Source: Thermoplasmatales archaeon (GTDB lineage: Archaea > Thermoplasmatota > Thermoplasmata > Thermoplasmatales > Thermoplasmataceae). Taken from it: a DNA stretch of 64,000 nucleotides. The position numbers and the translations under genes are program-made. Shown one piece after another: positions 34,268-64,000 of this stretch. The DNA lies in contig DAIDBH010000017.1 of NCBI GenBank assembly GCA_027310185.1, positions 1-64,000 on the forward strand. Direction: 5' to 3'. The number at the start of each line of letters is the position of its first letter. Within the stretch, counting starts at the first letter, position 1. Under the pieces are notes generated by a model. The model had not been told where the DNA came from. It was given only the letters and a program-made list of their open reading frames with translations, and searched no databases.

Positions 34268-35287
34268 TCAGTGCATAAGAAGGTATTTTTCTCTTTCCTC
34301 CTCTGTAATCCTGCTGATCTGTTTCTCCAATGATTTTACCTCACTGGCAGGATCAAAATTCATTTCCCTGTTTTCCTCCTTGAGTGTGAGGTATATGGAT
34401 CCGATTACTGCGTGATACCCATAAAGCGGGTCGGTTGGAATCATTTCCGGATATTGTTCCAGCACATCGCTCCTGACCTTTTTCCAGTAGAGGTTTGATG
34501 CCCTGAATAATCCACCGTAACCGCTGAAATGTACTTCCTCATCGCCAAACATTGTTTTCCTCAGTGATATTATGCACTTTGCTGCCTCTGTGGCTGATTC
34601 TTCCAAGAGTTCAGTTGCAAGTTCATCCCCTTTTTCAGCCAGTTTAGCTACAATGCCTGTAAATGATGCTATCCTGCCTATGTCTGGTGGATTTGTGTAC
34701 ACCTGGTTCACAATTTCCTTCAGATCATCTACATGAAAAAACTCCTTCACAGAATCCGGGATTTTACTCCTGATCACAGATCGACCATCATAAATCTTCA
34801 TTGTTTCCTGTAATGCTCTTCTGGCTGTGTAAAATGCTCCACCTTCATCACCCAGTATCCAGCCCCATCCACTTACTCTCCGGAATGCTGTTCCCTTCCT
34901 TCCATAGGAAACCATTCCTGTACCAGGGCATATCACAATGCCATCCTTTCCTGGAAATCTGCAATCAAATCCAGCCTCTCCATCATTGAGCACCCTTACC
35001 ATTGATATCTTTTCATGATCAACGACCCTGCCTATAAGTTCATTTTTCAGATTAGAGTCTTTCACACCCGCCAGTGCAATTGAAAATTTTGCTATATTAT
35101 TTATAACTATATCTGCCCGTCCTACGGCCCTTGAGATCGCTTCCTTTATGTTTTTTCCTGCTTCTTCAATTCCCCTTGTCCTGTAATTGCTTGGACCGGA
35201 AATACCCATCCCGTGAATGGAGCCATCTTCTGAGTAGCAAACCGCCACGGTCTTCGTCGCACCACCATCCACGGAAACAAACATCAT
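34268..35287 (-). CDS. BadF-family N-acetylmuramate/N-acetylglucosamine kinase (MurK-like)
   Basis: VDGGATKT, GPSNY, LND, PGTG, SGWGWILGDEGGA; context with murQ/nagA. Confidence 0.85.
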   Translation of the reverse strand: MMFVSVDGGATKTVAVCYSEDGSIHGMGISGPSNYRTRGIEEAGKNIKEAISRAVGRADIVINNIAKFSIALAGVKDSNLKNELIGRVVDHEKISMVRVLNDGEAGFDCRFPGKDGIVICPGTGMVSYGRKGTAFRRVSGWGWILGDEGGAFYTARRALQETMKIYDGRSVIRSKIPDSVKEFFHVDDLKEIVNQVYTNPPDIGRIASFTGIVAKLAEKGDELATELLEESATEAAKCIISLRKTMFGDEEVHFSGYGGLFRASNLYWKKVRSDVLEQYPEMIPTDPLYGYHAVIGSIYLTLKEENREMNFDPASEVKSLEKQISRITEEEREKYLLMH

Positions 35288-35317
35288 TATTACTGGTAAT
35301 ATTCAGGAATACATAAA

Positions 35318-36427
35318 TCAATCTGAATTGTTGAGAACAGAGAATACAAAGTTGTGGAATCTTCTCCTGAATTTCAGTATCCTGATATTTTCCCTTGTTG
35401 GGTATACCCTGTTGCTCAGCACTATTGCATAGGCACCTGTCTTTGGATCTATGCAGATGGATGTCCCGGTAAACCCTGTGTGGCCAAATGCACCATAGTT
35501 GACTGTTTCACCCATGAATGCGTTGTACCCGAATGACGGTCCTGGAACTGGTGGCCTTGGTACCTTGATCATCCACCCAAGGCCGAACATTCCTCCTACA
35601 TTCTGGTTCTGTGGCGTTACCATCATGCTCAATGTTTCCTTCCTGACAATTTTTCCACTTAACAGTGCTTCAGTAAAAATGCCCATGTCATGGGTGTTGC
35701 TGAACAACCCAGCATGCCCACATACGCCGCCGTAAAAATACGACTTCTCATCATGTACCTTTCCCCATACCGGCATTCCTCTTTCTGGATCCTCTTCAGT
35801 TGGTGCAATTTTTTCCTTTGCCACAGATGGATTAAAGAAAGAGCTATTCATTGACAGGGGTGAGAATAACTTCTCCTTTGCCAGAACATCCAGGGGTTTT
35901 CCAGATATCTCCTCAAGAAGGAAGGCGAGAAGTATGAAATTGAGATCACTGTATTCTTCTGTTGCAGGAAGCGTATCATGCTGGTGCATCAATCCAATTG
36001 TTCGCAGGTAATCTTCCTTTGTCTTTCCATATTTGTAAAGGGGGAATGTTGAGATCAATCCAGAAGTGTGTGTGATCAGCTGCCTGACTGTCAGGTTGGA
36101 TATGATCAGATCCTGGTTGTAAAGACCAAGAGAACCAAGGCTGTCCTCCAGGCTAAGCTCTCCCCTTTCAATATATTTCATTACCAGGCTTGCTGTTACC
36201 ACTGGCTTTGTTAGAGATGCCATGTCATAAATGGTATCCTCACTGTATTTGAAGTTAAGTTCTTTTATCTTTCCCTTGAAATATGACGTTTTATATGACC
36301 CCTTTCCTACCAGAACATTCATTCCTGAGGATACGCCTTCGAGATTTTTATCGACGAATTCCTTTAATTCTTCCGTGAAATTATCCATGTTCTTCCCCTT
36401 CATTCGATTTGCCCCCATATTCACCAT
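35318..36427 (-). CDS. Beta-lactamase-fold serine hydrolase, AmiE-like MurNAc-L-Ala amidase candidate
   Basis: DMASLTK (SxxK), LITHTSG, YSDLNF, GKVHDE, GHAGLFS, GHTGFTGTS, LSNRVYP. Confidence 0.8.
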   Translation of the reverse strand: MVNMGANRMKGKNMDNFTEELKEFVDKNLEGVSSGMNVLVGKGSYKTSYFKGKIKELNFKYSEDTIYDMASLTKPVVTASLVMKYIERGELSLEDSLGSLGLYNQDLIISNLTVRQLITHTSGLISTFPLYKYGKTKEDYLRTIGLMHQHDTLPATEEYSDLNFILLAFLLEEISGKPLDVLAKEKLFSPLSMNSSFFNPSVAKEKIAPTEEDPERGMPVWGKVHDEKSYFYGGVCGHAGLFSNTHDMGIFTEALLSGKIVRKETLSMMVTPQNQNVGGMFGLGWMIKVPRPPVPGPSFGYNAFMGETVNYGAFGHTGFTGTSICIDPKTGAYAIVLSNRVYPTRENIRILKFRRRFHNFVFSVLNNSD

Positions 36428-37407
36428 CTCACAACCTTGCTCAGGTTTGATGGATGATCAGGATCCATGCCCATGTTTACGGCCTTGAAATTTGCAAGAA
36501 GCTGGATGTATACAAGCGAGTTGAAGACCTTTTGAAACGGGTTTGTTTCATTGATCTTCAGGACTGCATCCCCATTCCCAATGGTTATGACCTCCCCTGA
36601 TAACGCCTTCAATTTTTCCATTATTTTCCTGTTGGGAAAACTACCCTCAGTCAACCAGATTACAGTTGTATCCCCATCCAGCCTGTGCACCGGGCCGTGA
36701 AAATATTCCCGCGTTGGATATGACTCTGTGACAACGCCAGATGTTTCCTTGAACTTAAGACCGCCTTCAAGAGCAACAGGGTAGCACTTTTCTGAACCGA
36801 GAAAAACAACCTTATTCCTGATTTTTGTAGATACTGAACCTACTTCATCTATAGCTGAAACGATCTTTGCAATGCCATTACATATATCATCCACTTCCTC
36901 ACTTATGTTTTTATCATTCCTGAGCCTGTAGTCTATGAGCATTGAGACTGCTACCTGGACAGCATGGGACTTGGTTGCTGCAATTGATTTTTCCTTTCCA
37001 GCGTGTGTGAGAATTGAATTATCAGATTCCCTGAAGAGCTGACTTTCCCTCTCATTGGTTATTCCTATCACTGTAAAACCGTATTTCTTTGAAAGCTTTT
37101 GGTTGGAGATTGCATCAGTACTCTCTCCTGACTGGCTAAAGATTATGTTCGTTATATCTCCATGAAGGTTCTTTATGAGGTTTTCGCTGTATTCTGATGA
37201 TGTAATGGCCATGGATCTTATGCCATTCTCAAGTAATGTATAATTTAACATTAGTGCAGCGTTATAGCTTGTTCCACTACCTGTTACAAAGACAAATGAT
37301 GATTTCCTTATCTGATCTATTATGGAATCAATTCTGTCAGCGTTCTCATTGATAGTTTTCCTTATTGCCTCTGGCTCTTCCCGGATCTCTTCATACATGA
37401 CAGTCAT
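36421..37407 (-). CDS. Double-SIS glucosamine-6-phosphate deaminase (GlmD/NagB-II type)
   Basis: MYEEIREEP, GSGTSYNA, SQSGES, ATKS, EGGLKFKE, HGP, DPDHPSNLSKV; GlmS isomerase half without a glutaminase domain; start moved to 37407. Confidence 0.88.
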   Translation of the reverse strand: MTVMYEEIREEPEAIRKTINENADRIDSIIDQIRKSSFVFVTGSGTSYNAALMLNYTLLENGIRSMAITSSEYSENLIKNLHGDITNIIFSQSGESTDAISNQKLSKKYGFTVIGITNERESQLFRESDNSILTHAGKEKSIAATKSHAVQVAVSMLIDYRLRNDKNISEEVDDICNGIAKIVSAIDEVGSVSTKIRNKVVFLGSEKCYPVALEGGLKFKETSGVVTESYPTREYFHGPVHRLDGDTTVIWLTEGSFPNRKIMEKLKALSGEVITIGNGDAVLKINETNPFQKVFNSLVYIQLLANFKAVNMGMDPDHPSNLSKVVRW

Positions 37408-37717
37408 ATGGAGTTGTATTGGTATTAACGCTATAAATCTTCTTTTGCTGCCCTTTTGCATATATATCAATTCATGATTCAATTTCTGGAAGTGGTAAAA
37501 AACGCTCATCACAATTTTGTATGAAAAATTGCTATGGGAACCACTTGGATATAATTTTTTACACAATGCTTCAACAACAATGCTTTAATACGAGCGAAAA
37601 CATGTTCAAAAAATTGTAGCATTATGCTTAGAACTGAAACTAAGAATAATACAAATTTGAAAGTTTGGACACCCAAAATAAACACCTTATATACATAGAT
37701 AAACTCACATTAGTAGA

Positions 37718-38878
37718 GTGATTAATCTGGAGAGCAGTATTCTTCTGAAGAGGATCGTTACACCGAATGGATATGTGGATGACTGCTATCTCAATATAAA
37801 AGATGGTGTTATACACAGCATAACGAGAAAGGGAATATTTGGCAATGAGATTATAGATTATTCAAATCTCACTGCAATTCCAGGATTCATAGATATACAC
37901 ACCCATGGGTATTTTGGAATTGATGCAACCTATTCATCAGAGGATGAGATTCACATGTGGGCCTCCATGCTAGCCAGGAAAGGCATTACCTCCTTTATTC
38001 CCACATGCGTCTCACTTCCACTTGAGACCATGATCAAATTCGTAAATAAGATCAAAACAGCATCACTTCATCAAAAGAAAAATGAGGCGAGAATACTGGG
38101 AATGAGAAGCGAGGGACCGTATATCAGTCTGGAGCAGAAAGGGGCACATAACACACTATACCTGAGGAAACCAGATGTTGAAGAACTGAAAAAAATAGTT
38201 CACGCTGCTGGTGATTCCACGTTTCTGATTGATATGGCTCCAGAGCTTGAAAATTTCATGGAATCAATGGAATATCTGCTGGAGAATGACAAGATTGTAT
38301 CCCTTGGACATTCAAATGCCTCATACGTCCAGGCCAGGAAAGGAATTGAATCTGGCGCGAAACTGATGACACACTTTTTTAATGCAATGTCTCCCCTGAA
38401 ACACAGGGAGGTTGGCATGGTTGGGGCCGGTCTTTTATCAGATTCAGTATATCTGGAACTCATAGGAGATATGCATCATGTGTCAAGGGAGGCAATTGAG
38501 ATTCTACTGAAAACAAGAGATATTGATCACATAGTGGGAATTACAGATTCACTTTCCATAGGAGGTACTACCACAGCAGAAGTTAAACTTGGAGGCCTTG
38601 ATGTCATAAAAAAGGATGGTGTTGCATGGATCAAGGATACAAACACCATCGCAGGAAGCATCCTCACAATGGATGCTGCATTCCGGAATCTTAATGAGAT
38701 TATCCCAGATCTCATGAGCCTGACGAAGATTTTTTCGACTAACCCCTCAAGGGTATTGAGCCTGAAAAACCTGGGATATATAGATGCTGGAATGAATGCA
38801 GACCTGAATTTTATTGATGAACATATGAATGTGAAAGCCACGATGATAGGTGGGTATCTTGCTGGTGATGAGAAATGA
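37718..38878 (+). CDS. nagA: N-acetylglucosamine-6-phosphate deacetylase
   Basis: PGFIDIHTHG, EGPYI...KGAH, GHS, THFFNAM, ITD, IAGS. Confidence 0.96.
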   Translation: MINLESSILLKRIVTPNGYVDDCYLNIKDGVIHSITRKGIFGNEIIDYSNLTAIPGFIDIHTHGYFGIDATYSSEDEIHMWASMLARKGITSFIPTCVSLPLETMIKFVNKIKTASLHQKKNEARILGMRSEGPYISLEQKGAHNTLYLRKPDVEELKKIVHAAGDSTFLIDMAPELENFMESMEYLLENDKIVSLGHSNASYVQARKGIESGAKLMTHFFNAMSPLKHREVGMVGAGLLSDSVYLELIGDMHHVSREAIEILLKTRDIDHIVGITDSLSIGGTTTAEVKLGGLDVIKKDGVAWIKDTNTIAGSILTMDAAFRNLNEIIPDLMSLTKIFSTNPSRVLSLKNLGYIDAGMNADLNFIDEHMNVKATMIGGYLAGDEK

Positions 38879-38921: not shown

Positions 38922-39743
38922 ATGACGTCATCCACTGAAGACATAAACCCATTTTCTGTAAACATACATGAGTGGGATGAAGAAACAATTAGCTCATTTA
39001 TTCACCTCTCAGATATAGCTGCCTATGAGGCAGTTGGAAAAGCGATGGATGAAATTTCCAAAGCATGCCGGATGATTCTGGAATCCCTTGAAAAAGGTGG
39101 GAGAGTCATTTACCTTGGTGCAGGTACAAGTGGAAGGGTTGCTGCCCAGGATGTTGTTGAACTGCTTCCAACATACGATCTCGGAACAGATTACTTTGAT
39201 TTCATACTGGCTGGAGGTGTCGGATCACTTGTTAAATCTGTTGAGGGCGCAGAGGATGACAGGAACGGATCAGTGAATGAGTTGAAGCAGAGGAGGCTAA
39301 ATTATAAGGACACTGTTGTTGGAATATCAGCATCAGGCACTACCCCATTCGTCCTTGGTGGCATGGACTACGCAAGAACACTGGGATGCAGGACAATTGG
39401 AATAACAAATAATCATGGCAAGAAGATAGAGAAATCATCTGATCTATGCATTGAACTGCTGACAGGCCCGGAAGTTATTCAGGGTTCAACCAGGATGAAG
39501 GCAGGGACTGCTCAGAAGATGGCACTGAATATAATTTCTACCACTGTAGCGGTAAGGCTTGGAAGAACCTACAGGAATACCATGTCCCACATGGGATCAT
39601 GGTACAATGAAAAACTGAAGAAAAGATCGGTTAACATACTTGTTACCCAGTTTTCAATGACTGAATCTGATGCAGAGAAAATGCTTACTGAAAATAATTA
39701 CAACATTAACAGGTGCATAGAAATTCTGAAGAACAGTAGATAA
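38922..39743 (+). CDS. murQ: N-acetylmuramic acid 6-phosphate etherase
   Basis: YLGAGTSGR, EGAEDD, GISASGTTP, GPEVIQGSTRMKAGTAQKM. Confidence 0.96.
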   Translation: MTSSTEDINPFSVNIHEWDEETISSFIHLSDIAAYEAVGKAMDEISKACRMILESLEKGGRVIYLGAGTSGRVAAQDVVELLPTYDLGTDYFDFILAGGVGSLVKSVEGAEDDRNGSVNELKQRRLNYKDTVVGISASGTTPFVLGGMDYARTLGCRTIGITNNHGKKIEKSSDLCIELLTGPEVIQGSTRMKAGTAQKMALNIISTTVAVRLGRTYRNTMSHMGSWYNEKLKKRSVNILVTQFSMTESDAEKMLTENNYNINRCIEILKNSR

Positions 39744-39795: not shown

Positions 39796-40872
39796 ATGAT
39801 AAAATCAGTAAAATTTAAAAAACTGAATCTTGAGATGAAGAAACCTTTCAAGATTGCTTTGGGCTCAACAGATTTTTATGAGGGATTCCTGGTTTCCATT
39901 GAGACAGATGATGGCATAACAGGATACGGTGAGGCTACCACAACACCATTCATTACAGGAGATACCATGGGCTCAATAGAGAGCGAACTTTCATTCTTCT
40001 CAAAGAAGCTGATCGGAGAGGAAGAATCACCTGAGATTGTAAATACAAAGATGAAGGCGTGGATGAGATCATCCAAGGCAAGCAGGAATGCAATTGACTG
40101 TGCACTCTGGGACATCATAGGAAAGAGGGCAAACATGAACCTTGTAAAATTGCTGGGAAATCATAAGAAATCAATCCTGACTTCATACACCGTTGATCTG
40201 GTTGATGCAGAGACTGCGAAATCACAGGCTAAGGAGCTGTTATCACAGGGTCTCAGGGTTTTCAAGATAAAAGTCGGATCCGGGATTGAGGAAGATTTGA
40301 AAAGAGTAAAGGTTGTGAGGGATGTGGTTGGGGAAGATAAGATGATCTACATAGACTTCAACCAGGCATATAACGTTAAAAATGCTGTCAGGATATCAAG
40401 ATTACTGGAACCTTACAATATAGAATTCATGGAACAACCCATTGCTTCCACAGATATTTCTGGATTGCGTTTTATAAGGGATCATTCTGAAATTCCTGTC
40501 TATGCAGACGAGACCATTTTCACGCCACAGGATGTTTCTGAAGTTCTTAGAAGGGAAGCTGTGGATGGAATAAATATCAAGCTGATGAAATCTGGAGGAA
40601 TCTCAGATGCAATGCAGATGGCAAACACTGCAAAATCATTTGGTGTGCCAGTGATGATAGGATGCATGGTTGAAACGAGGATTGCGAACACTTCTGGCCT
40701 CATAGTTGCACTGAGCAACTCTGCAGTTAAATATGCTGATCTTGACGGATACAATAACATAAAGGAGGACCCTGTTACAGAAGGAATTCTGATGAATAAG
40801 GGAGAAGTGAGCTTATCAGCAAATCTACCTGGAACAGGTATAGCTGTGAGGGAGAAATTCCTTAAAGCATGA
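39796..40872 (+). CDS. L-Ala-D/L-Glu dipeptide epimerase (enolase superfamily)
   Basis: KIK, DFNQ, EQP, ADE, NIKLMKSGG, GCMVE and the DLDG motif typical of dipeptide epimerases (YcjG/YkfB). Confidence 0.9.
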   Translation: MIKSVKFKKLNLEMKKPFKIALGSTDFYEGFLVSIETDDGITGYGEATTTPFITGDTMGSIESELSFFSKKLIGEEESPEIVNTKMKAWMRSSKASRNAIDCALWDIIGKRANMNLVKLLGNHKKSILTSYTVDLVDAETAKSQAKELLSQGLRVFKIKVGSGIEEDLKRVKVVRDVVGEDKMIYIDFNQAYNVKNAVRISRLLEPYNIEFMEQPIASTDISGLRFIRDHSEIPVYADETIFTPQDVSEVLRREAVDGINIKLMKSGGISDAMQMANTAKSFGVPVMIGCMVETRIANTSGLIVALSNSAVKYADLDGYNNIKEDPVTEGILMNKGEVSLSANLPGTGIAVREKFLKA

Positions 40873-40880: not shown

Positions 40881-42290
40881 TCAACTCATAAATCCAAATG
40901 CCTTCATTATTGCTCCAACTATTACTGAAGGCTTCTTTGAATATGCACTTATATATCCCATATTTTCTGAAATTATTCCAAGATCGCCGTCAAAGCTTGT
41001 GGATATGAATACGCATATGTTTCTTTCTGAAATCTCATTCAGTAACTTCACCCTTGACCTCAGATGCTCGTTCCTCCCTACAAAGATAATCTGTCTTCCT
41101 GCATCTTTCATGTTCTCTAAGAACTCTATGCCATAATGTAATTTCAGATCCAGGTTCAAACTACCAAGATGGGAAGATACAAGATTTGTAGATTTTGTTA
41201 TTTCAGCCACCTGGCTTTCGTCCTTTGAATCCATCAGAACAAGATCAGTTTCCTTCTCGGGATCAAGCATCTTCACTCTTCTTACAATAGGGGAAACAGT
41301 CTCAACGGACTTCAGGAGATATGGGGATGGCCTGTGTGACATTTTCCTGACCGGTTCCATGAATTCAAGGATTCTCTGTTCCTTCTTTTTCAATAATGCA
41401 TTATCTATCTTCTGAATTTCTTCATAGAATTCCATGGAGCCTACAATATCTGCATTCTCCAGTACATCAACCTCATTTTTAATGGAACCCTTGATAATTT
41501 CTGAAACGTCATACCTTCCCTTTATTGCCTTCATGTCCATGGAATCTGAAATTATGAGGTTCTTATAATTGAAATCCTTTCTGAGCAATTTCTGTACTGC
41601 TGATGACAGAGTGGCTGGATAGTTATCATCCAGGGAATTGTAGAGAACATGAGAAAGCATTATGGAACTGACGCCCGCTTCAGCTGCCTTCCTGAATGGA
41701 TATGCATCGTTTATTATGGATTCTATATTCCTCCTATCTTCAGGTAAATCAACGTGGGAATCAACCATTACAGATCCATGACCGGGGAAGTGCTTTGCTG
41801 TTGCCCGAACACCATAGGACTGAATACCCCTGATGAATTCCACGCCATGCTTTGCAATGAGTTCAAGATCAGATCCAAAGGATCTCTCAAGAATTACTGG
41901 ATTGTATCCATTTAGGGTATCCAGAACAGGAGCCAGGTTCCATCTTATTCCCAGGGAGTTTAGCTGGTATCCGGTGAGTCTTCCAACATAATTTGTGAAT
42001 TTAGGATCATCAAGCTTTCCAAGGAACAGGTTGCTCGGGTTGTAATCAATCCATGGAATCCTTACCACGTTTCCCCCTTCCTGATCCACTGCAATGAAAG
42101 GTGCATCAACATTGTTTTCCACAACGTATATGTGGTTTATCTTCTTTATCAGTTCAGCCAGTTCCTTCTCATCCCTGAAATCATTGCTGAACAGCACTAC
42201 AGATAGGGGCAACATCTTCGAGACATACCTCAGGCTTTCTTCCCTCTCTACACCTCTGAGGCCTGTCTGAATGAATAATCCTGATCTCAT
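40881..42290 (-). CDS. nagZ: GH3 beta-N-acetylglucosaminidase
   Basis: VDQEGGNV, APVLD, ERSFG, KHFPGHG..VDSH NagZ signature, SDSMDM. Confidence 0.92.
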   Translation of the reverse strand: MRSGLFIQTGLRGVEREESLRYVSKMLPLSVVLFSNDFRDEKELAELIKKINHIYVVENNVDAPFIAVDQEGGNVVRIPWIDYNPSNLFLGKLDDPKFTNYVGRLTGYQLNSLGIRWNLAPVLDTLNGYNPVILERSFGSDLELIAKHGVEFIRGIQSYGVRATAKHFPGHGSVMVDSHVDLPEDRRNIESIINDAYPFRKAAEAGVSSIMLSHVLYNSLDDNYPATLSSAVQKLLRKDFNYKNLIISDSMDMKAIKGRYDVSEIIKGSIKNEVDVLENADIVGSMEFYEEIQKIDNALLKKKEQRILEFMEPVRKMSHRPSPYLLKSVETVSPIVRRVKMLDPEKETDLVLMDSKDESQVAEITKSTNLVSSHLGSLNLDLKLHYGIEFLENMKDAGRQIIFVGRNEHLRSRVKLLNEISERNICVFISTSFDGDLGIISENMGYISAYSKKPSVIVGAIMKAFGFMS

Positions 42291-45239: not shown

Positions 45240-45298
45240 GGCTGCATATTGGTAGGAAGAATTTAAATTATAATGTTTGTTGTTTCCCTCGCAAACAA

Positions 45299-46206: not shown

Positions 46207-46737
46207 ATGAATGTTGTAAATGTGATAATTTTGCTGGGATGCCGATCATCTGGATGCGCCCCCACTGAAGAGCTTAAGGGTAGGGCAGGAGAAGCAGTGA
46301 ATTTATATAGGTCCCTCAATGGAGAAGCAATTATAATCCCATCAGGCGGAGTCACGGAGAAGGGATGCGGAATATCAGAAGCTGAATTTATGTTAAGAGA
46401 ACTTTTGAAATATGGCATCCCCAGAGAAAAGATAATTATGGAGGAAAAAGCTGGAACCACTATCGGAAACGCATTCTTTTCAAAATTGCTTTTGGAGAGA
46501 AATGGAATCGAGTACGAGAAGATTCATATTATCAGTTCATGCTATCACATGAAGAGATCAGAGTATATTTTCAAAAATATATTTTCTATAGATGATATTG
46601 GAACTGGTTATTGCTTTGGAGAGTCAATGGAAAGAGAAAGTGAAACAGAAAAACTCCGTAGGGACTCCATGATTTTGAAAAATATCAGAGGAAGATCTAC
46701 AGAAGAGGTGGAGAATAATTTCAGGGAATATCTCTGA
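46207..46737 (+). CDS. YdcF/ElyC/SanA (DUF218) family protein
   Basis: IILLG, SGG...SEAEFM, EEKAGTTIGNA, SSCYHMKRS. Confidence 0.9.
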   Translation: MNVVNVIILLGCRSSGCAPTEELKGRAGEAVNLYRSLNGEAIIIPSGGVTEKGCGISEAEFMLRELLKYGIPREKIIMEEKAGTTIGNAFFSKLLLERNGIEYEKIHIISSCYHMKRSEYIFKNIFSIDDIGTGYCFGESMERESETEKLRRDSMILKNIRGRSTEEVENNFREYL

Positions 46738-56675: not shown

Positions 56676-57584
56676 CTATTTTTTATAATTGTCATGGTTC
56701 AAAAGTGATAATGACATTATCTGAAATTTTCTTGTGATCTTGAAACCGTATCTTGAATACAAATGGGAGGCCTTCTCTGATGTCCAGAGAAAATATGCAT
56801 GCCTGATCCCATTTGCTTTCATGTTGATCAGCGTGGTGGTTAATAACCTGCCCCCGATCCCCATGGATCGGTAAGCTTCCAGAACCTCGAAACAACCAAA
56901 TCTCTCGCCCGGAGAAAATTCAAATGGACCTTCTCCACTTGCGTACATGGAATAACCAACAATCCTATTATCCAGTTTTGCAATTGAGATTTGATCCAAG
57001 CTTCCATGTTTTATTACACCTTCAACTCTCAGATAGCAATCATAGGGAAAATTACTTCTTACCATTTTTAGAAGTTCTTCGGTTTCTTCAATTTTTAAGT
57101 TTCTGATCTCTGCTTCATTTTTTTCCTTTTGAGTATAGTGGATTTCTCCTATGTCTGCTTCCATAGCCAGGGCTTCTGAATCTAAACTGAAACCAAGTTC
57201 CGTGAGTAAGTCATAAAGCTCAGGATATTTCTCTTTATCGATGCCTGGAAAAAAATATCCAGGTGAAAAATTGGAATAATATATTCTTTCAATACCCATA
57301 TCCCTTGCATATTCTATTTGCTTCTTCAAAAGTTTAATAAATTCTATTCTATCGGTGAATCCAGCACAAATTACCCATGCTTCCTTCCCTGAATTTTCCT
57401 CTCTGGGCTCACCCCTTCTTTTACATAGAAGCGAGAAGGCACCTTCATTTACCTGCTCACCTATTGGAACCACATGTGGATTTTGAAAATATTTCCTTTC
57501 CAGCTGAAATAGGGATGTTGGATCAAATTTATAGAACTTATTCCAGATTTCCAGTATTCTTTCTCTTTCTATACCCTTAATCAT
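56676..57584 (-). CDS. Tandem GNAT acetyltransferase, GlmA-like glucosamine N-acetyltransferase candidate
   Basis: Two GNAT halves; FSPGYFFPGID..YP, ERFGCF, YRSMGIG, YFLWT..LYSRYGF. Confidence 0.75.
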   Translation of the reverse strand: MIKGIERERILEIWNKFYKFDPTSLFQLERKYFQNPHVVPIGEQVNEGAFSLLCKRRGEPREENSGKEAWVICAGFTDRIEFIKLLKKQIEYARDMGIERIYYSNFSPGYFFPGIDKEKYPELYDLLTELGFSLDSEALAMEADIGEIHYTQKEKNEAEIRNLKIEETEELLKMVRSNFPYDCYLRVEGVIKHGSLDQISIAKLDNRIVGYSMYASGEGPFEFSPGERFGCFEVLEAYRSMGIGGRLLTTTLINMKANGIRHAYFLWTSEKASHLYSRYGFKITRKFQIMSLSLLNHDNYKK

Positions 57585-57842
57585 TATTTTTGGAATCCTT
57601 AAGGCCTTAACTACATTTTCTATAAGTTTACCATGTGAGTGAACCTATCAAACTCTCGATTGTATTTATTTGAATTGCTTAACTTAAGGGAACTGAATTA
57701 AGAAGATGAAATGCAATAAAGTGGGAACGATTTGAAGCCTGAATGGATAAGACATACTGGTTATGAGTTTAGTGTTTTTGTGATATAAAAACTTTAATAA
57801 TAGAGATTGAATATTTATAAAGCACATCGAGATGTGGTTCTA

Positions 57843-58577
57843 ATGTGCCGCATGTTTTCTTTGTCTGGCGATTTCTCTAATGAATACCGAAAAATAATGA
57901 CATCTTTTCTTGACGTCACCAGACACGATCCTCTTTCTACGAACAGCGATGGAAGTTTCACGTCTCACGATCATGGTTATGGCTATGTCCACTATGATAA
58001 TTCTTCTCTGGAGTTTTTCAGATCAAAAACCCCTGTTTTTGAATCACTTATTTCAGACTTCACGTCAGGACAGTTTATCATGCATGCGAGAAAAGCAGCC
58101 CCTGGAGAACCAATTGGGACACTGGAGAGTCATCCACATTATGAAGTTGATGAAGATTATGAGGTATTTCTCGCGCACAATGGGTGGTTTGATAAAAAGG
58201 CAATTGCCATGGAGCTTGGCATTAATAACTATGGAAGATACGTGGACAGCCAGCTATTTCTTAAGTATGTTATTTCATTCGATGGTGAATTCAGAAATCG
58301 TCTGGAAAGAGCCCTCTCCTTTGCTAAGGAGAAAGAATTGATAAAGTCAACTGCCAATCTGATGATTCTCTCAATAGATCGTAACACCCGGGAATCAAGG
58401 CTATATTACTATACTGATGTTAAGGAAGGTCGGGAATATGGCGATTATGTGAGACTATACCACGGGAAGACTGACCGCTGGAATGGAGTGTTTTCCTCAA
58501 GCATTATACAATCTGATTTCTTCCCGAAAAATGTATCTACGGAAGAAGTGAAGAGAGGTGTTGTAAATGAATTATAA
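57843..58577 (+). CDS. Class II glutamine amidotransferase-fold (Ntn) hydrolase, EgtC/DUG3-like
   Basis: Starts MCRM (catalytic Cys2), HDHGYG, HARKA, HP, AHNG, DS; start moved to 57843. Confidence 0.85.
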   Translation: MCRMFSLSGDFSNEYRKIMTSFLDVTRHDPLSTNSDGSFTSHDHGYGYVHYDNSSLEFFRSKTPVFESLISDFTSGQFIMHARKAAPGEPIGTLESHPHYEVDEDYEVFLAHNGWFDKKAIAMELGINNYGRYVDSQLFLKYVISFDGEFRNRLERALSFAKEKELIKSTANLMILSIDRNTRESRLYYYTDVKEGREYGDYVRLYHGKTDRWNGVFSSSIIQSDFFPKNVSTEEVKRGVVNEL

Positions 58578-58814: not shown

Positions 58815-60107
58815 TTGGAAATTCCTTTGGAATTCAGATCATTGAATGAGATTGCAGGCCTGATAAAAAGTAAGGAAATTTCTCCGTGCTACATTTTGGA
58901 AAGACTCATTGAACGGATTGAAAAACTGGATACAAAAGTCCAAAGTTATGCAAGACTGAACTCAAACGCGCTGGAAGAATGCAGGAAGATAGTAAGGCTG
59001 TCAGAATATGTAATGCCAGTTTCAGTTAAAGATTTATTTGACACCAAGAACATTGAAACAAATTATGGTTCAATGATCTATAGAGGTAACATTCCCGGGA
59101 AAGATGCAACCGTGGTAAAAAATATCAGGAAAAAAGGTGGGATAATTATAGGCAAAACAGTAACCCATGAGTTTGCGCTTGGGATCACATCATCTCCTAC
59201 AAAGAACCCATGGGACCTTAGAAGAATTCCTGGAGGTTCAAGCGGGGGATCTGCTGCAGCTGTAGCAGCTGGAATGTCAGTGTTTGCTACTGGAACAGAT
59301 ACGGGTGGGTCCATAAGGATTCCAGCAGCAATGTGTGGTGTTACTGGCTTGAAACCAACTTATGAGTTAATATCGAGATCTGGGATTTTCCCTGAATCAT
59401 GGTCCCTTGATCACGCAGGTACCATAACGAGGTATGCAAGCGATCTGATTCTCGAACTGGAATTCATGACTGGAAAAATCTATTCCAGTAAAAGGGAGGG
59501 AACAGAAAACTTAAAAGTCGGAGTTGCCTGGGAATTGTTTGACTATTGTGAACCTGGGGTGCGGAAGGCTTCATTAGCTGCCCTTGAGAAAATTAGAGGT
59601 GAACTGAATATTGAATATACTGGTGTTAGAGAGGAGAACCTAAAATTTAAAGAAATGAAGAGACTTCATGAAATTATTGATACATGTGAAATAGCACTAA
59701 TTCACAGGGAGAACTATGCTAAATATCCAGACAGCTATTTGAAAAGTTCTATTGAGCAGATAGAAGAAGGTCTGTCCTTCAAAGCAGTGGAGTACATAAA
59801 TGCAAAAAGAAGCAGAAAAAAGTACAGGGAACTACTGGATGCAAAGTTTAGGAACCTGGATGTAATTTTAATCCCTACGCTGAAAGATGTGGCTCCAATC
59901 ATAGATAACAAAAAAAATACAAGTGAACATGATAATAATTCTGAAATAGATTTTCTTTCGCCATTGAATTATTCAGGAAACCCAGCAATATCTATTCCAG
60001 TTGGTTTTTCCAAGGAGCTCCCAGTTGGTATGCAGGTGATCGGCAGGAATAATTCGGACTTGAAATGCATTGAATTTGCTTCCCTTGTGCAGGACCGAAC
60101 AGATTGA
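58815..60107 (+). CDS. Amidase-signature family amidase
   Basis: VKDLFDT, GKTVTHEFA, PGGSSGGSAAAV, GTDTGGSIRIPA, LPVGMQ; last ~10 residues appear cut by a TGA. Confidence 0.93.
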   Translation: MEIPLEFRSLNEIAGLIKSKEISPCYILERLIERIEKLDTKVQSYARLNSNALEECRKIVRLSEYVMPVSVKDLFDTKNIETNYGSMIYRGNIPGKDATVVKNIRKKGGIIIGKTVTHEFALGITSSPTKNPWDLRRIPGGSSGGSAAAVAAGMSVFATGTDTGGSIRIPAAMCGVTGLKPTYELISRSGIFPESWSLDHAGTITRYASDLILELEFMTGKIYSSKREGTENLKVGVAWELFDYCEPGVRKASLAALEKIRGELNIEYTGVREENLKFKEMKRLHEIIDTCEIALIHRENYAKYPDSYLKSSIEQIEEGLSFKAVEYINAKRSRKKYRELLDAKFRNLDVILIPTLKDVAPIIDNKKNTSEHDNNSEIDFLSPLNYSGNPAISIPVGFSKELPVGMQVIGRNNSDLKCIEFASLVQDRTD

Positions 60108-60345
60108 CATAAAACGATTCCGCCTGGCTTTTCCTGAACAATGATCTCTTAGGCAGAGTATGACCAGATTTAGAAAATAATAAACACATATACCTCAAAA
60201 TTCCATTATATGACCAGAATCAAATACAGAAGGAGCACTTGCTTCTAATACACGACATGAAGATGCATCTGCCAGTTTATTGCCTATGAAAATTTTCATA
60301 TTTTTTTTAAATAAATTTATCGTTTCAAATAACATACTGGATTCA

Positions 60346-61131
60346 ATGGAAATTGAGACTGTAATTGATCCCGACAAAATGAAGAAAATGATCCCCATAA
60401 TAAAGTCGGCATGGGGGATGAACACCATGGATCAACTGGTGAAAGATATGATAGCTGCCATGAGATTCCACGGAGGATTGGCGCTTATAGCCATGGAAGA
60501 TGGCAATGCAATAGGAATGCATTTCAGCTTTACAGGAAGGAGAAATGGCAAGATATATCTATATTCCCATATGACTGGAGTTCTCAGTGATAAAAAGTAT
60601 TCAGGCGTAGGATTCAAATTGAAAATGAGGCAGAAGGAATGGGCTATGGAAAATGGATTTGATCTTATAGCATGGACATACGATCCATTAATGGGTTTGA
60701 ATGCAAATTTCAATATTCGTAAGATTGGCGCGATAGCCAGGACATATCTGAGAAATTTTTATGGAGATATGGAAGATTCCCTTAATTATGGGATTCCAAG
60801 TGACAGGTTTGTGGCTGAATGGCGGATCCTTGATGATAGGAAGGCACAGGGAAAGCCGATGCTTAATATCAATGCGTTGGAAGGAGATACGGAGTTAAAT
60901 GTAAAAGAACTGCCAGATGTGATATCGTTCAAAATTCCAGAAGATTTTCTATCAATGAAGAAGAATGATAAAGATGCCGCCTCTATGATAAGACTTTCCA
61001 CACGTACAATTTTGGAGAATTTATTTTCATCCGGATTCACAGTGACAGATTTTCATAGGGATTCCTCATCATATATCATGACAAGATGTGGTGAAGAAGA
61101 CCCCGATTTCCATGAAAATATTTTTAAATGA
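60346..61131 (+). CDS. GNAT, putative D-amino acid N-succinyltransferase
   Basis: YSHMTGV, LKMRQKEWA, WTYDPL..NANFN..K, YGDMEDSLN..PSDRF; family usually found beside NSAR/OSBS; start moved to 60346. Confidence 0.82.
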   Translation: MEIETVIDPDKMKKMIPIIKSAWGMNTMDQLVKDMIAAMRFHGGLALIAMEDGNAIGMHFSFTGRRNGKIYLYSHMTGVLSDKKYSGVGFKLKMRQKEWAMENGFDLIAWTYDPLMGLNANFNIRKIGAIARTYLRNFYGDMEDSLNYGIPSDRFVAEWRILDDRKAQGKPMLNINALEGDTELNVKELPDVISFKIPEDFLSMKKNDKDAASMIRLSTRTILENLFSSGFTVTDFHRDSSSYIMTRCGEEDPDFHENIFK

Positions 61132-61176: not shown

Positions 61177-62277
61177 TCAGATATTGATTATCAGACTTAA
61201 AAGTGCCGAACGTTCTGGGAGAGTATCAACGAGTACATATTCATTTTCTGAATGAGCTCCGTCACCCACTGCACCTAGACCATCTATTACCGGACAATAT
61301 TTAGAACAGATATTACCATCGCTGGCTCCAGAAACAGAAACTTCATCCAGATTTATTCCAATTTGACTTGCCATAAGCTTCACTTTCTGGAAGAGTTCAC
61401 CTGTCAGCTTCGTCCTGATCATAGGTTCTCTCAATCTGTATTTGATTGATGCCACAGAGCCTTCTACATCTGGCTTTACTGATTTTAGAAATGATAATAC
61501 CCTTCCGGCAGCTTCTTCAGAACCGTATCTTAAGTCTATTCCAATTTCGCAGTAATCGGGTACCACATTTGTTCTCGTACCTCCACTGATTGTGCCTATA
61601 TTAATTAACGTGCCATCATCAATACCGGCATAAAAAACTCTAATCTTCTCGATTATAGAACTCATTGCATTTATTGCATTGACACCTTTATTCGGATCCA
61701 GCCCTGCATGTGCAGACTTCCCACTGGTGCTCAATGTTATGGTTCCGACCCCTTTTCTTTCTGTTTTTAGATTCCCATTGAGAGAAGCTTCCATGACCAG
61801 GGCAAATTTAGATCTTTTAGCTTCCTCTTCTATTATGGACCTGGAGAATGTGGAACCGATCTCTTCGTCTGATGTTACAAGCAAAACAACTCTGTTCTTA
61901 AGAGTCTTCTTACTTACTAGATAGTCCAGGGCAAAGAGGGTCTGTACCAGTCCTCCTTTCATATCAAAAACACCTGGTCCATAAGCCCGGCCATTTTCAA
62001 TCCTGAATGGATTTTTCAATGTTGTTCCCTCCCCAAAGACAGTATCATAATGAGTTAGGAGCAAAACCTGCTCGCTTGCATCTGGATTGAATACACAACG
62101 GAGATCGTTTCCAGCAGATTCAGATTTTATCAATTCGCATTCTACTCCATATAGCTTCCTTATTTTGGTTTGAAGGTAACCTGCAAAATCATCCAGAAGT
62201 TGTTTATTTGTTGAGGGGGTTTCCATGCTTACCATATCTCTGAGCATTTCTATCATTTCACCTTTTCTGGCTATCAT
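61177..62277 (-). CDS. M20 metallopeptidase (carboxypeptidase G2-like / desuccinylase)
   Basis: HYDTV, GPGVFDMKGG, DEEIGS, SAHAG, GGTRTNVVP, SDGN, GAHSENE. Confidence 0.92.
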   Translation of the reverse strand: MIARKGEMIEMLRDMVSMETPSTNKQLLDDFAGYLQTKIRKLYGVECELIKSESAGNDLRCVFNPDASEQVLLLTHYDTVFGEGTTLKNPFRIENGRAYGPGVFDMKGGLVQTLFALDYLVSKKTLKNRVVLLVTSDEEIGSTFSRSIIEEEAKRSKFALVMEASLNGNLKTERKGVGTITLSTSGKSAHAGLDPNKGVNAINAMSSIIEKIRVFYAGIDDGTLINIGTISGGTRTNVVPDYCEIGIDLRYGSEEAAGRVLSFLKSVKPDVEGSVASIKYRLREPMIRTKLTGELFQKVKLMASQIGINLDEVSVSGASDGNICSKYCPVIDGLGAVGDGAHSENEYVLVDTLPERSALLSLIINI

Positions 62278-62291
62278 ATTATCCAGTATTT

Positions 62292-63386
62292 CTATGATAA
62301 CACCCCTTCTTCAACTTTGAATTTGTTGAGCATCGATTCATTCAACTGCACTCCTATTCCTGGAGAATTGAATGGTTTAATAATTCCTTCATTCATTTCA
62401 AACAGCCTATCCACTATATCCTGGTTGAAATATCTCTCGTTAGGAGAAGTGTCACCCGGATAGTCTATATACTCACTGGATGCCATTGCTATGTTAAATG
62501 CTCTTCCAATTCCTGTTTCAAGCATACCACCGACCCATGAATGTCCCTTATTTTTTCTGGCAATTCGTGCTATGAGATTGGAATTATACAATCCACCAAC
62601 TCTACCGGGCTTAATGTTCACGACCTTACATGCACCCACTTCAAAAGCATTTTCTGCTATTTCTGGGGACGTAATGGATTCATCCAGGCATATTGGTGTT
62701 GAAAGCAATTTTGAAAGTTTCGAGTGGTAGATTATATCATCATGATAAAGTGGCTGTTCCAGATAGACTAAGTCAAATCTATCAATTTTTTCAAGCAGGT
62801 GAAAATCCTTAACAGTATAATCACTGTTGGCGTCCGCACTGAGAACTATATCGGGAAACTGATCTCTTATGGGCCTTAATATTGCAACTTCTTCCCCTTT
62901 CTTGATTTTTACTTTGATCCTTTTGTATCCTTTATCCAGTGATTCCTGAATTTTTTGCAGGGTAATATTTATTTTATCGATTCCTATGGAAATGCCAGCA
63001 TTTGCATAACCTCTTGGCTTCTCACCTAGAAACTCGAAAAGAGGTTTTTCCGCTATCTTGGAATGATAATCATAGAGCAACATTTCCATGGCTGCCTTTG
63101 CCATGTTGTTTCCCCTGATAAATTTGGAATCCTCATTGAACTTTTCAGGCAATGGCATTCCTTGAACCAATTTCACAAGATAACTCCTGATAATGTGAAA
63201 TGCTGTTGTATTATCCTCCGGCCCATAAAATGGATCCTCACTCGTAATTAATTCCGAGAATGCCCTGATCCCTTCATGATTCAGTTCAAAAATAATAACG
63301 TCCTTGTCCGAGGTAGTTCCAAAGCTAGTGGTGAACGGAGATTTCATCGGAATCTTCAACTTGTAATATTTCAGGTTCATGAACAA
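62292..63386 (-). CDS. menC: o-succinylbenzoate synthase / N-succinylamino acid racemase (NSAR/OSBS)
   Basis: PFTTSFG, KIK, DAN, EQP, LDES, NIKPGRVGG, GGMLETGIGRA, PGDTS. Confidence 0.9.
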   Translation of the reverse strand: MFMNLKYYKLKIPMKSPFTTSFGTTSDKDVIIFELNHEGIRAFSELITSEDPFYGPEDNTTAFHIIRSYLVKLVQGMPLPEKFNEDSKFIRGNNMAKAAMEMLLYDYHSKIAEKPLFEFLGEKPRGYANAGISIGIDKINITLQKIQESLDKGYKRIKVKIKKGEEVAILRPIRDQFPDIVLSADANSDYTVKDFHLLEKIDRFDLVYLEQPLYHDDIIYHSKLSKLLSTPICLDESITSPEIAENAFEVGACKVVNIKPGRVGGLYNSNLIARIARKNKGHSWVGGMLETGIGRAFNIAMASSEYIDYPGDTSPNERYFNQDIVDRLFEMNEGIIKPFNSPGIGVQLNESMLNKFKVEEGVLS

Positions 63387-63565
63387 TCGATTCAGGAAAT
63401 ATAGATAAAGATTTTGAAATGTTTTCCAGTGAATAAAAAAATTTTAACAATACAGATTTTGTTCCAACACAAGAATTCATTACCATTATCTTCAGGACTC
63501 TCATGCTATGAACATATTTACGTTTGGTAACAAACTTAATTTAACCAGGAAGAATCTTAAGAATT

Positions 63566-64000
63566 GTGTATAGTGATGTTAAGAGAGGAACTGTCGAGAC
63601 CAGAGAGATGCTCATAGATTCTCTTGATTCAGTTTTCAGGCCTGGAAATGTTACCGGTTCATCCATGGGGATTGAATTTCCTCATTTATTATCTGTTGAG
63701 AATATACAAAATACGTTCTACATTGACGATGGAAAAGTTCCTGTTAGCCAGGCAAGTGTGCTTCTATCCAAGGTATATATTAACGGTGCTATCCTGGATG
63801 TTGCTTCCCTGGGTTCAGTATCCACATTAAAGGAACACAGGCATAAAGGACTCTCTACGAGAATCATCACTGAAATGACTGAATTCTACAGAGATTCCGG
63901 AATAGATCTACTACTGGTTTCTGGAGAGATCGAGCTGTATACAAAAATGGATTGCGTCAAAACTGGATCTGATTACTTAGCTGTGATTGATAAAACAGTA
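63566..64000 (+). CDS. Eis-like GNAT acetyltransferase (partial, runs off the window)
   Basis: GTG at 63566 opens a frame to the window end: ...VFRP..SMGIEFPHLL...ASLGSVSTLKEHRHKGLS...LLLVSGEIELY; not in the ORF track. Confidence 0.8.
   Translation, partial: MYSDVKRGTVETREMLIDSLDSVFRPGNVTGSSMGIEFPHLLSVENIQNTFYIDDGKVPVSQASVLLSKVYINGAILDVASLGSVSTLKEHRHKGLSTRIITEMTEFYRDSGIDLLLVSGEIELYTKMDCVKTGSDYLAVIDKTV

Follow-up and report, generated by a model that had tools for sequence, protein, structure and literature searches.

A bacterial-type peptidoglycan-catabolic gene island in a wall-less Thermoplasmatales archaeon, probably devoted to imported murein fragments

Why should an archaeon that makes no peptidoglycan (murein) carry, side by side, the genes by which bacteria take this polymer apart? 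The question is raised by contig DAIDBH010000017.1 of a Thermoplasmatales archaeon (GenBank assembly GCA_027310185.1; family Thermoplasmataceae), of which positions 1 to 64,000 of the forward strand (hereafter the window) were analysed; the contig is 286 kb long and begins with the window, the genome measuring 1.88 Mb in 19 contigs. An earlier note, made from the DNA letters alone, had described a near-complete murein salvage island from position 34268 onward, leading to fructose 6-phosphate (Fru-6P), acetate, ammonia, D-lactate and L-amino acids, and had interpreted it as a feeding or predatory system. The families confirmed here support such a near-complete set of bacterial type in a wall-less archaeon. 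In our judgement the island most probably serves the catabolism, in the cytoplasm, of imported soluble fragments of bacterial peptidoglycan by an organism that makes none, i.e. scavenging and not predation.

The island spans 34268 to base 64675 of the contig, the stop codon of the last gene for a GNAT acetyltransferase; the window stops at 64000. Its left edge is supported by one relative in which the genes for the electron-transfer flavoprotein (ETF) directly abut the kinase gene, and on the right unrelated housekeeping genes come after the last stop codon. Between 34268 and the window end, 24 non-nested open reading frames (ORFs) were delimited, 23 of which match a Pfam family (E<=0.001), while ORF 60280-61131 has no credible Pfam match even at E<=1 and no NCBIfam match. 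Curated NCBIfam cut-offs are exceeded by six of the proteins: MurQ, NagA, LysA, the S13 DD-peptidase, the CocE/NonD hydrolase and the OSBS/NSAR enzyme (o-succinylbenzoate synthase/N-succinylamino-acid racemase). The expected Pfam domains, with scores short of the strict equivalog cut-offs, are found in the NagZ-type glycoside hydrolase (GH3), in LdcA, in the Ala-Glu-epimerase-like enzyme and in both the BadF kinase and the SIS deaminase. The following genes are those assigned to the glycan arm, i.e. to N-acetylmuramic acid (MurNAc) as well as N-acetylglucosamine (GlcNAc), listed together with an S15 hydrolase and an esterase.

34268..35287, minus strand: BadF/BcrAD-type sugar kinase, candidate MurNAc/GlcNAc 6-kinase (PF01869, 118 bits)
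35318..36427, minus strand: beta-lactamase-fold (S12-type) serine hydrolase, candidate MurNAc-L-Ala amidase or D-peptidase (PF00144, 155 bits)
36421..37566, minus strand: double-SIS glucosamine-6-phosphate deaminase of the GlmS C-terminal/NagB-II/GlmD type (PF01380, two matched stretches)
37718..38878, plus strand: NagA, GlcNAc-6-phosphate deacetylase (TIGR00221 282.7, cut-off 225.65)
38922..39743, plus strand: MurQ, MurNAc-6-phosphate etherase (NF003915 308.2, cut-off 168; NF009222 257.4, cut-off 255)
40881..42290, minus strand: NagZ-type GH3 beta-N-acetylglucosaminidase (PF00933, 177 bits)
42334..43977, minus strand: CocE/NonD (S15) serine hydrolase (TIGR00976 295, cut-off 66)
44028..45302, minus strand: NamZ copy 1, exo-beta-N-acetylmuramidase family GH171 (PF07075 221.7 bits, PF20732 152.8 bits)
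48243..49292, minus strand: Abhydrolase_3 esterase (PF07859, 160 bits; hormone-sensitive-lipase-type likeness below cut-off)
49580..50680, plus strand: NamZ copy 2 (PF07075 194.8 bits, PF20732 80.5 bits)

The murQ, nagA, nagZ, BadF kinase and SIS deaminase genes named in the earlier note, as well as its two namZ genes, were all recovered. MurQ falls below the stricter TIGR00274 (259.1, cut-off 302); its residues E80 and E111 are invariant across seven archaeal sequences and presumably correspond to the two catalytic glutamates, about 31 residues apart, of E. coli MurQ. Both NamZ copies, which share 29-30% identity, carry PF07075 and PF20732 above the Pfam cut-offs (26.9 and 25), and copy 1 matches PDB entry 4k05 (E 2.9e-61). 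The top PDB matches of the NagZ-type protein are GH3 beta-N-acetylglucosaminidases, to a solved one of which 'KHFPGHGSVMVDSH' aligns; KHFPGHG....DSH is present, which we take to be the Asp-His dyad motif of NagZ-type GH3 enzymes (KH[FI]PG[HL]Gx4D[ST]H). The deaminase resembles the GlmS C-terminal half (188 bits), NagB-II (121 bits) and GlmD (112 bits), all below cut-off. Its relatives align across 328-341 of its 381 residues and the homologue alignment begins about 40-55 codons into the ORF, so the annotated start is probably too early and the true start internal; the longest ORF overlaps the next gene by 7 bases.

The best solved relatives of the BadF kinase are an archaeal hexokinase (2e2n, E 1.9e-34) and, next, an 'N-acetylmuramic acid/N-acetylglucosamine kinase' (8zo3, E 3.9e-22); being nearer to the former, it may be a recruited archaeal enzyme. 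Of the AmiE-like hydrolase proposed earlier, the beta-lactamase fold stood, and AmiE stays a putative identity. Its top NCBIfam name is PBP4B (114 bits, cut-off 385), its PDB relatives are D-peptidases (E 1e-13), and no AmiE-named relative occurs among the PDB matches or among the best 120 of 1664 proteins (E<=1e-10), homologues being labelled by their sources merely 'serine hydrolase'. The AmiE-like label is based on fold and position, the gene being kept beside MurQ/NagA in 19 of the 25 related archaeal loci surveyed below. The nearest solved protein of the S15 hydrolase is cocaine esterase (E 2e-59). For the Abhydrolase_3 esterase, a role in de-O-acetylation would be a guess.

Interspersed with these genes and following them are those of the peptide arm and of uptake, together with several of less obvious function.

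39796..40872, plus strand: enolase-superfamily enzyme, candidate L-Ala-D/L-Glu epimerase (MR_MLE_N and MR_MLE_C)
45299..45988, minus strand: SH3 and NlpC/P60 cysteine peptidase, candidate gamma-D-Glu-diamino-acid endopeptidase, YkfC-like (PF00877, PF18348 (SH3_16))
46207..46737, plus strand: DUF218 protein (PF02698, 78 bits)
46777..48069, minus strand: LysA, diaminopimelate decarboxylase (TIGR01048 329.8, cut-off 297.9)
50731..51702, minus strand: LdcA-type LD-carboxypeptidase, S66 (PF02016 127 bits, PF17676 92 bits)
51940..55254, minus strand: membrane-anchored extracellular solute-binding protein of family 5 (SBP_bac_5), 1104 amino acids (aa) (PF00496, 105 bits)
55489..56598, plus strand: short S13 DD-carboxypeptidase/endopeptidase of the PBP4/DacB type (TIGR00666 113.2, cut-off 107.8)
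56676..57584, minus strand: GNAT acetyltransferase, 302 aa (PF13508, PF00583)
57807..58577, plus strand: weak class-II glutamine-amidotransferase-like protein (PF13230 (GATase_4) 24.1 bits, cut-off 23)
58815..60107, plus strand: amidase-signature enzyme (PF01425, 289 bits; below the cut-off of every matched NCBIfam family)
60280..61131, plus strand: family-less ORF, 283 aa, kept at 76% identity in two same-genus genomes
61177..62277, minus strand: M20 metallohydrolase, candidate N-acyl-L-amino-acid hydrolase or dipeptidase (PF01546, PF07687)
62292..63386, minus strand: OSBS/NSAR-family enolase-superfamily enzyme, candidate N-succinylamino-acid racemase (TIGR01928 370, cut-off 200.65)
63566..64675 (window to 64000), plus strand: GNAT acetyltransferase, 369 aa (PF13527)

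Here, too, most earlier assignments (dacB, ldcA with both S66 Pfam domains, NlpC/P60, lysA, NSAR, M20 and the peptide-binding protein) were confirmed. Of the three GNATs counted by the earlier note, two were recovered (56676-57584 and 63566-64675), no third being found even at E<=1, and the CocE/NonD S15 hydrolase, the DUF218 protein, the Abhydrolase_3 esterase, the amidase-signature enzyme, the weak GATase_4 protein and the family-less ORF are additional to its list. The Ala-Glu epimerase held as an MR_MLE enzyme whose top NCBIfam name is L-Ala-D/L-Glu epimerase; its score of 225 bits lies below the cut-off of 500, and the N-acetyl-D-Glu racemase model scores 184. The best solved relative of the NlpC/P60 protein is 3h41, presumably a YkfC-type enzyme, to which DCSGF and the His-containing strands (Cys-His-His site) align. 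The SNMK, SCN and KTG motifs of the S13 peptidase, which has no signal peptide, align to the solved PBP4/R39 enzymes 2wke and 2ex2. An LdcA paralogue (51% identical) is encoded on contig C6. The DUF218 family is, we assume, tied to envelope biogenesis.

LysA has no second copy in the genome by tblastn. A DapB homologue (DapB_N) is encoded elsewhere in the genome, in which DapF was not found; lysA is thus no clear orphan, and its product may serve both salvage and biosynthesis. The OSBS/NSAR gene sits between those of the M20 hydrolase, whose top NCBIfam names ('hydrolase', 'glutamate carboxypeptidase') are both below cut-off, and of a GNAT. Conversion of D- to L-amino acids by an NSAR pathway with M20 and GNAT partners is known from Geobacillus kaustophilus. 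Since no MenD of menaquinone synthesis scores above cut-off in the genome (best match 41 bits, cut-off 244), the racemase function is favoured over that of an o-succinylbenzoate synthase. The family-5 binding protein is weakly similar to DppA, HbpA and OppA and has no permease genes beside it. Three Opp/Dpp-type systems are encoded outside the island, and because a paralogue with 47% identity to the binding protein stands at the head of the Opp operon on contig C18, analogy suggests that the orphan binder borrows the C18 permease.

From these genes we infer an order of steps, substrates and a transporter as follows. The anchored binding protein would capture muropeptides or stem peptides outside the cell and pass them to an Opp/Dpp-type ATP-binding cassette (ABC) permease encoded elsewhere, all later steps being cytoplasmic. 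In the glycan arm, the NagZ-type GH3 would remove GlcNAc, the beta-lactamase-fold hydrolase (alternatively the S15 hydrolase) would free MurNAc from the peptide, and NamZ would split MurNAc-GlcNAc. The BadF-type kinase would then form MurNAc 6-phosphate (MurNAc-6P) and GlcNAc-6P in place of the bacterial phosphotransferase system (PTS), MurQ would convert MurNAc-6P to GlcNAc-6P and D-lactate, NagA would remove acetate, and the SIS deaminase would yield Fru-6P and ammonia. In the peptide arm, the S13 DD-peptidase would open cross-links and trim D-Ala, LdcA would remove the fourth D-Ala, and the YkfC-like NlpC/P60 peptidase would cut the bond between gamma-D-Glu and diaminopimelic acid (DAP). 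The epimerase would turn L-Ala-D-Glu into L-Ala-L-Glu, then cleavable by a dipeptidase, LysA would convert meso-DAP to lysine, and the trio of GNAT, NSAR and M20 would turn D-amino acids into their L-forms. The fragments may stem from wall debris in soluble form or from turnover products that bacteria nearby release.

Is this gene set peculiar to one genome? A survey in which each species was represented by one genome, with seven aligned MurQ sequences of archaea as query, returned 65 loci: 25 of Thermoplasmatota (46-84% identity), one of a Woesearchaeota metagenome-assembled genome (MAG) and 39 bacterial ones (37-44% identity, mostly Clostridia). The 25 archaeal loci, many of them cut by contig ends, stem from Thermoplasmata, Thermoplasmatales and Thermoplasmatota records, two of which bear the titles 'uncultured archaeon' and 'Methanobacteriota archaeon', respectively. 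Rearranged versions of the cluster recur among these loci, and the island is therefore not unique. Kept beside MurQ (25 of 25) are NagA (20), the beta-lactamase-fold hydrolase (19), NamZ (17), the deaminase (16), NlpC/P60 (16), GH3 (15), the epimerase (14), S15 (13), S13 (11), the BadF kinase (11), LysA (9), DUF218 (8) and the 302-aa GNAT (6). Clustering of the remaining ORFs added AnmK (10 loci), an Opp-type permease and ATPase (11), M19 dipeptidase (5) and, in 4 loci, a GlcD/GlcF-type FAD oxidase, candidate D-lactate dehydrogenase. These extra genes would fit a murein-catabolic pathway. The genome studied here has no AnmK and no M19 dipeptidase by tblastn, and its GlcD/GlcF pair on contig C6 shares 49% and 45% identity with those linked to the clusters of relatives. 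AnmK and BadF kinase largely alternate (AnmK only in 7 loci, BadF only in 8, both in 3, among L027-L051, many of which are cut by contig ends), a hint that there are two pools of substrate, one of anhydro-MurNAc and one of reducing MurNAc.

The bacterial loci of the sample hold MurQ with at most a weak kinase match, this being the sole other island protein in 20 of the 39; one Epulonipiscium locus adds GH3 and NamZ. The fusion of sugar and peptide arms is therefore, within this sample, a feature of the archaeal clusters. A maximum-likelihood MurQ tree of 63 rows (leaving out L075, a 143-aa fragment, and L088, L090 and L091, with matches <220 aa) unites 27 Thermoplasmatota rows in one clade (SH-aLRT 98, stem length 0.7). 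The bacterial rows were fetched with peptide patterns from the archaeal alignment, and because this sample is biased, the tree does not place a donor lineage; of the tree that the earlier note had proposed for finding donors, only the archaeal clade was thus obtained. The gene set was probably acquired long ago and is common to many Thermoplasmatota in rearranged forms. The MurQ of the DPANN-labelled Woesearchaeota MAG (L077) has a long branch, groups with bacterial sequences outside the Thermoplasmatota clade and represents either a separate acquisition or a binning error. A further observation concerns an anchored extracellular protein of about 400-440 aa without Pfam family in 9 of the 25 archaeal loci (e.g. 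L031, 287-1606, minus strand), which carries a single signal or membrane anchor at its N-terminus and may be an extracellular component. An atlas search with its 439-aa representative gave no usable feature match and structural matches of TM<=0.32.

Does the archaeon possess a wall of its own to recycle? Models for the transpeptidase (PF00905) and for FtsW/RodA (SEDS; PF01098) have 0 matches each in the genome, which scored 99.54% complete and 1.04% contaminated, and both match in 10 of 10 bacterial controls. Since the host makes no wall, the island would serve feeding, not recycling. Turnover of a component of its own envelope, e.g. an undescribed glycoconjugate containing MurNAc or D-amino acids, could be invoked in view of the one Mur-ligase-family gene of the genome and of the GNATs and the DUF218 protein in the island. 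The lack of transpeptidase and FtsW/RodA and the finding of a Mur-ligase-family match likewise in two murein-less control archaea make this explanation exceedingly improbable, and no such polymer is mentioned in the accessible text of a 2016 paper on wall-deficient relatives (PMC5155288).

The place where fragments are degraded was approached by hydropathy scans with 19-residue and 10-residue windows. A signal-like N-terminus together with a C-terminal anchor is confined to the 1104-aa binding protein, whose hydrophobic peaks lie only at residues ~6 and ~1076; none of the island enzymes, both NamZ copies included, has a signal-like N-terminus by these scans, and they look cytoplasmic. GH25, SLT, Amidase_2, Amidase_3 and GH73 have 0 matches each in the genome, M23 and other lysin families not having been searched. 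Enzymes without signals and the lack of matches in five lysin families point to imported soluble fragments and not to sacculi dismantled outside the cell. Of the earlier feeding hypothesis, scavenging therefore stands, as far as predicted location goes, and the 'predatory' option has no support. The same findings make it very unlikely that the island does the digesting within a larger system by which living bacteria are killed and their walls consumed. Such a system would find precedent in a 2025 paper, according to the accessible text of which archaea, Thermoplasmatota prominent among them, have secreted peptidoglycan hydrolases of bacterial origin, some of which kill bacteria, the feeding purpose being left open (PMC12352652). 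The anchored family-less protein of 9 related loci could moreover be an unrecognised lysin; against this stands that it has no homologue in the present genome (tblastn).

Could murein be a minor substrate only? MurQ, the two NamZ, LdcA, the YkfC-like endopeptidase and the S13 peptidase form the conserved core of the cluster, and the bonds on which their families are known to act are found in murein alone; the anhydro-MurNAc-specific AnmK accompanies the cluster in 10 of 25 loci. A general scavenging of amino sugars, D-amino acids and peptides from mixed necromass (chitin-derived GlcNAc, D-amino-acid peptides, proteins) is for these reasons unlikely. What speaks for it is that NagZ, NagA, the deaminase and the broad hexokinase-like kinase would handle GlcNAc from other sources too, that the binding protein weakly resembles general di- and oligopeptide binders, that several other glycan-use modules lie upstream in the window, and that same-order relatives are described, in the accessible text, as scavengers of proteinaceous material (PMC5155288).

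That the genes belong to the archaeon, which the earlier note had wished to see confirmed, is borne out by several observations. A full-length match to the archaeal model of small-subunit ribosomal RNA lies on another contig of the genome. Two TrmB regulators are encoded in the window, and a DUF3198 protein and a Kae1-Bud32 fusion 4 kb past the island. Two same-genus genomes, one of them a single contig, encode all 29 proteins tested (the ETF proteins, the last GNAT and those between) in unchanged order and at 68-98% identity, and smaller, rearranged clusters occur in five further relatives, including another genus and another family. The GC content of the island (0.389) is close to that of the genome (0.395), and in tetranucleotide use it does not stand out, 43% of 104 control windows being farther from the genome mean. 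DNA runs from several mine-drainage and tailings studies contain most of the stretch. A chimera or contamination is excluded by the collinear relatives, the Kae1-Bud32 gene downstream and the typical composition. An assembly or binning artefact, in which a bacterial fragment was joined to an archaeal contig, might be suspected from the typically bacterial nature of all enzyme families and from the 19 contigs of the assembly. Given the same archaeal flanks in the one-contig genome and in the second genome of the genus, TrmB upstream and Kae1-Bud32 downstream on the same contig, the composition, the DNA runs and the related clusters in 25 archaeal loci, its probability is negligible. A recent insertion of the island is likewise unlikely in view of its typical GC content and tetranucleotide use; the 64-kb window contains no tRNA gene, and its sole transposase (IS110 family, 79-1236, at the very start of the contig) is 33 kb away from the island.

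Are the genes expressed? Four RNA libraries from three studies contain the stretch or parts of it. Contigs of libraries X5 and X18, both from one sample, are 100% identical and cover 30 and 26, respectively, of the 30 bins into which 20 kb was divided; libraries X19 and X20, from other studies, contain fragments of 90-99% identity, which reach 23 and 11 of these bins. Intergenic spacers are where the X5 contigs end, and the per-contig figures run from 16 to 1122, both weak hints only. RNA libraries can hold DNA, contig depth cannot rank genes, and uncovered bins in X18-X20 are uninformative. These contigs are consistent with transcription. No shared operator motif was obvious by eye in 20 AT-rich intergenic spacers, no motif search having been run.

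Several points weigh against the catabolism of imported murein fragments as proposed. NCBIfam scores stay below cut-off for NagZ (NF003740, 161 of 207), LdcA (the E. coli-type equivalog NF008424, 103 of 378), the epimerase (225 of 500), the kinase (NagK, 87 of 370) and the deaminase (121 of 430). The nearest match of the kinase is an archaeal hexokinase of broad range, and the MurNAc-L-Ala amidase step is served by candidates alone, AmpD-type and Amidase_3 families having no match in the genome. LysA may simply be a biosynthetic enzyme, given the DapB homologue elsewhere. The island has no permease, and the link of its binder to a distant Opp system is a guess from paralogy; the scheme includes no importer of glycans or disaccharides, and a cytoplasmic NamZ and DD-peptidase presuppose the uptake of larger fragments than importers are known to carry. 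The hydropathy scans are not a trained predictor, and the RNA-library contigs are no proof of transcription. Finally, the scheme gives no role to S15 other than as an alternative amidase, and none to DUF218, the esterase, the amidase, the GATase-like protein and the family-less ORF.

A broader interpretation, which we put forward tentatively as a possibility and somewhat doubt, is that murein feeding has long been a trophic trait throughout the lineage of wall-less Thermoplasmatota, with two routes of entry that can replace each other, AnmK and a recruited kinase. On the AnmK side, anhydro-muropeptides shed by growing Gram-negative neighbours would be taken up, amounting to cross-feeding on living bacteria; on the other side, the recruited kinase of archaeal hexokinase type would take reducing-end MurNAc from dead walls. 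Murein would then supply sugar carbon, nitrogen and, via LysA, lysine, and S15, DUF218, GNAT and the anchored protein of the relatives would represent new peptidoglycan-catabolic activities, one of them the MurNAc-L-Ala amidase.

How, then, does the island relate to known systems? All its enzyme families are known; it departs from those systems in host, purpose and location and in the joining of its parts in a single island. A kinase-dependent MurNAc route is known from MurK of Clostridium acetobutylicum and from Tannerella forsythia. PTS-independent entry via a BadF/BcrAD-family kinase near MurQ is shared with it, whereas the archaeal kinase is nearer to the archaeal hexokinase than to 8zo3. 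The cytoplasmic recycling set of Gram-negative bacteria comprises AmpG, NagZ, AmpD, LdcA, AnmK, MurQ and NagA. As there, whole fragments would be imported and every bond cut in the cytoplasm, and AnmK is found in related loci; in contrast, the present genome is without AnmK (tblastn) and AmpD-type amidase (Amidase_2, 0 matches), and the archaeal products would be burnt, not re-used for wall synthesis. Murein peptides are degraded by ykfABCD of Bacillus subtilis and by LdcA, MpaA, YcjG and PepD, with MppA/Opp, of E. coli, where MppA borrows OppBCDF. LD-carboxypeptidase, YkfC-type SH3-NlpC/P60 and enolase-superfamily epimerase co-occur in the island in a similar manner, and its orphan binder with a paralogue in an Opp operon recalls MppA. 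Unlike in these peptide routes, the binder has 1104 aa and a C-terminal anchor, LysA and the S13 DD-peptidase are added, and epimerase and LdcA remain below curated cut-offs.

The closest bacterial counterpart on the glycan side is the murQ-murR-murP-amiE-nagZ-namZ operon of B. subtilis, described in the accessible text as serving muropeptide rescue with secreted NagZ, AmiE and NamZ (PMC8054146). Both loci cluster MurQ, a NagZ-type GH3, NamZ and a beta-lactamase-fold hydrolase, and in both GlcNAc, peptide and MurNAc would be removed in exo fashion before MurNAc-6P is converted to GlcNAc-6P, as far as the accessible text on the operon goes (PMC8054146). The archaeal NagZ, NamZ and beta-lactamase-fold counterparts are without signals, unlike B. 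subtilis NamZ, for which a signal peptide is reported there (PMC8054146). The island also differs in having neither the PTS protein MurP nor MurR, the BadF-type kinase standing in, and in joining stem-peptide genes to the glycan genes: no PTS family and no RpiR/MurR helix-turn-helix regulator was found among the 24 ORFs, MurR appearing only as a weak SIS-domain cross-match. In the accessible text on the B. subtilis operon, archaea are mentioned 0 times (PMC8054146).

Among non-bacterial hosts, the lysins of the 2025 paper are secreted weapons, and in relation to them the island would constitute the catabolic half, without lysin; in its accessible text, whether bacteria or their walls feed archaea is asked without answer, and 'recycling' and 'catabol' occur 0 times (PMC12352652). 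Anaerobic ciliates have laterally acquired pbp4b, NamZ, anmK, murQ and lysA, which the accessible text reads as feeding on bacterial wall debris (PMC13198582). In both cases a murein-less host has acquired the same bacterial enzyme set; unlike the eukaryotic hosts with their scattered transcripts, the archaea hold one conserved island that includes the peptide arm (PMC13198582). Wall-deficient, cultured relatives of the same order are portrayed in the 2016 paper as scavengers of proteinaceous compounds with incomplete lysine synthesis, and its accessible text contains 'muram' and 'glucosamin' 0 times each (PMC5155288). A full-text literature search, with subscription-only papers outside its coverage, retrieved no account of MurQ/NamZ-based murein catabolism in archaea and thereby agrees with the earlier note, which knew of no described archaeal cluster of this kind.

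Large amounts of carbon and nitrogen are bound in the bacteria-specific peptidoglycan, the consumers of which are poorly known in archaea-rich habitats such as acid mine biofilms. The island appears to provide the catabolic half of the question, raised in the accessible text of PMC12352652, whether archaea feed on bacterial walls. It would exemplify a bacterial recycling pathway rebuilt for feeding, with a kinase in place of the PTS, formerly secreted enzymes now cytoplasmic, and sugar and peptide arms fused. It may further supply lysine and L-amino acids to organisms that have been described as scavengers dependent on amino acids, and several conserved genes are nominated as candidates for new wall-degrading activities. 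The evidence consists of comparative genomics and of presence in RNA libraries; as same-order relatives are cultured and every enzyme is expressible, the question of murein feeding is testable.

The surroundings of the island deserve brief description. Directly to its left (28538-34182) ETF alpha and beta, ETF-quinone oxidoreductase, a ChrB_C-domain protein and an FMN-dependent L-2-hydroxy-acid (lactate-type) dehydrogenase are encoded; the latter two are missing from this position in one relative. The product of MurQ is D-lactate, and the FMN-dependent L-2-hydroxy-acid dehydrogenase family is L-specific, for which reason the dehydrogenase (33025-34182) was rejected as the lactate step.

The left half of the window represents a carbohydrate-use region. 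It includes a GH1 gene (24048-25493) and a glycan module (14143-22572) with GH31, an alpha-amylase-family enzyme and a MalK-type ABC transporter, which has its own TrmB (12892-13896). A module of seven genes (3923-12463), 22 kb upstream of the island, comprises a second BadF-type kinase, TrmB, GH31 and a CUT1-type sugar ABC transporter. The same seven genes lie within the island, between epimerase and GH3 (L013/G012, 3319-11692; 68-91% identity), in the same-genus genome that consists of one contig, and more distant sets of GH31, TrmB and ABC genes (25-44% identity) are located near the clusters of two other relatives; two possibilities are a mobile module for sugars and a linked importer of glycans. 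Beyond the right edge, the fusion of Kae1 (TsaD) and Bud32 (RIO-type kinase) has 526 aa (contig C1, 67914-69494; L026, 3914-5494, minus strand) and is adjoined by the DUF3198 protein and a Ham1 NTPase.

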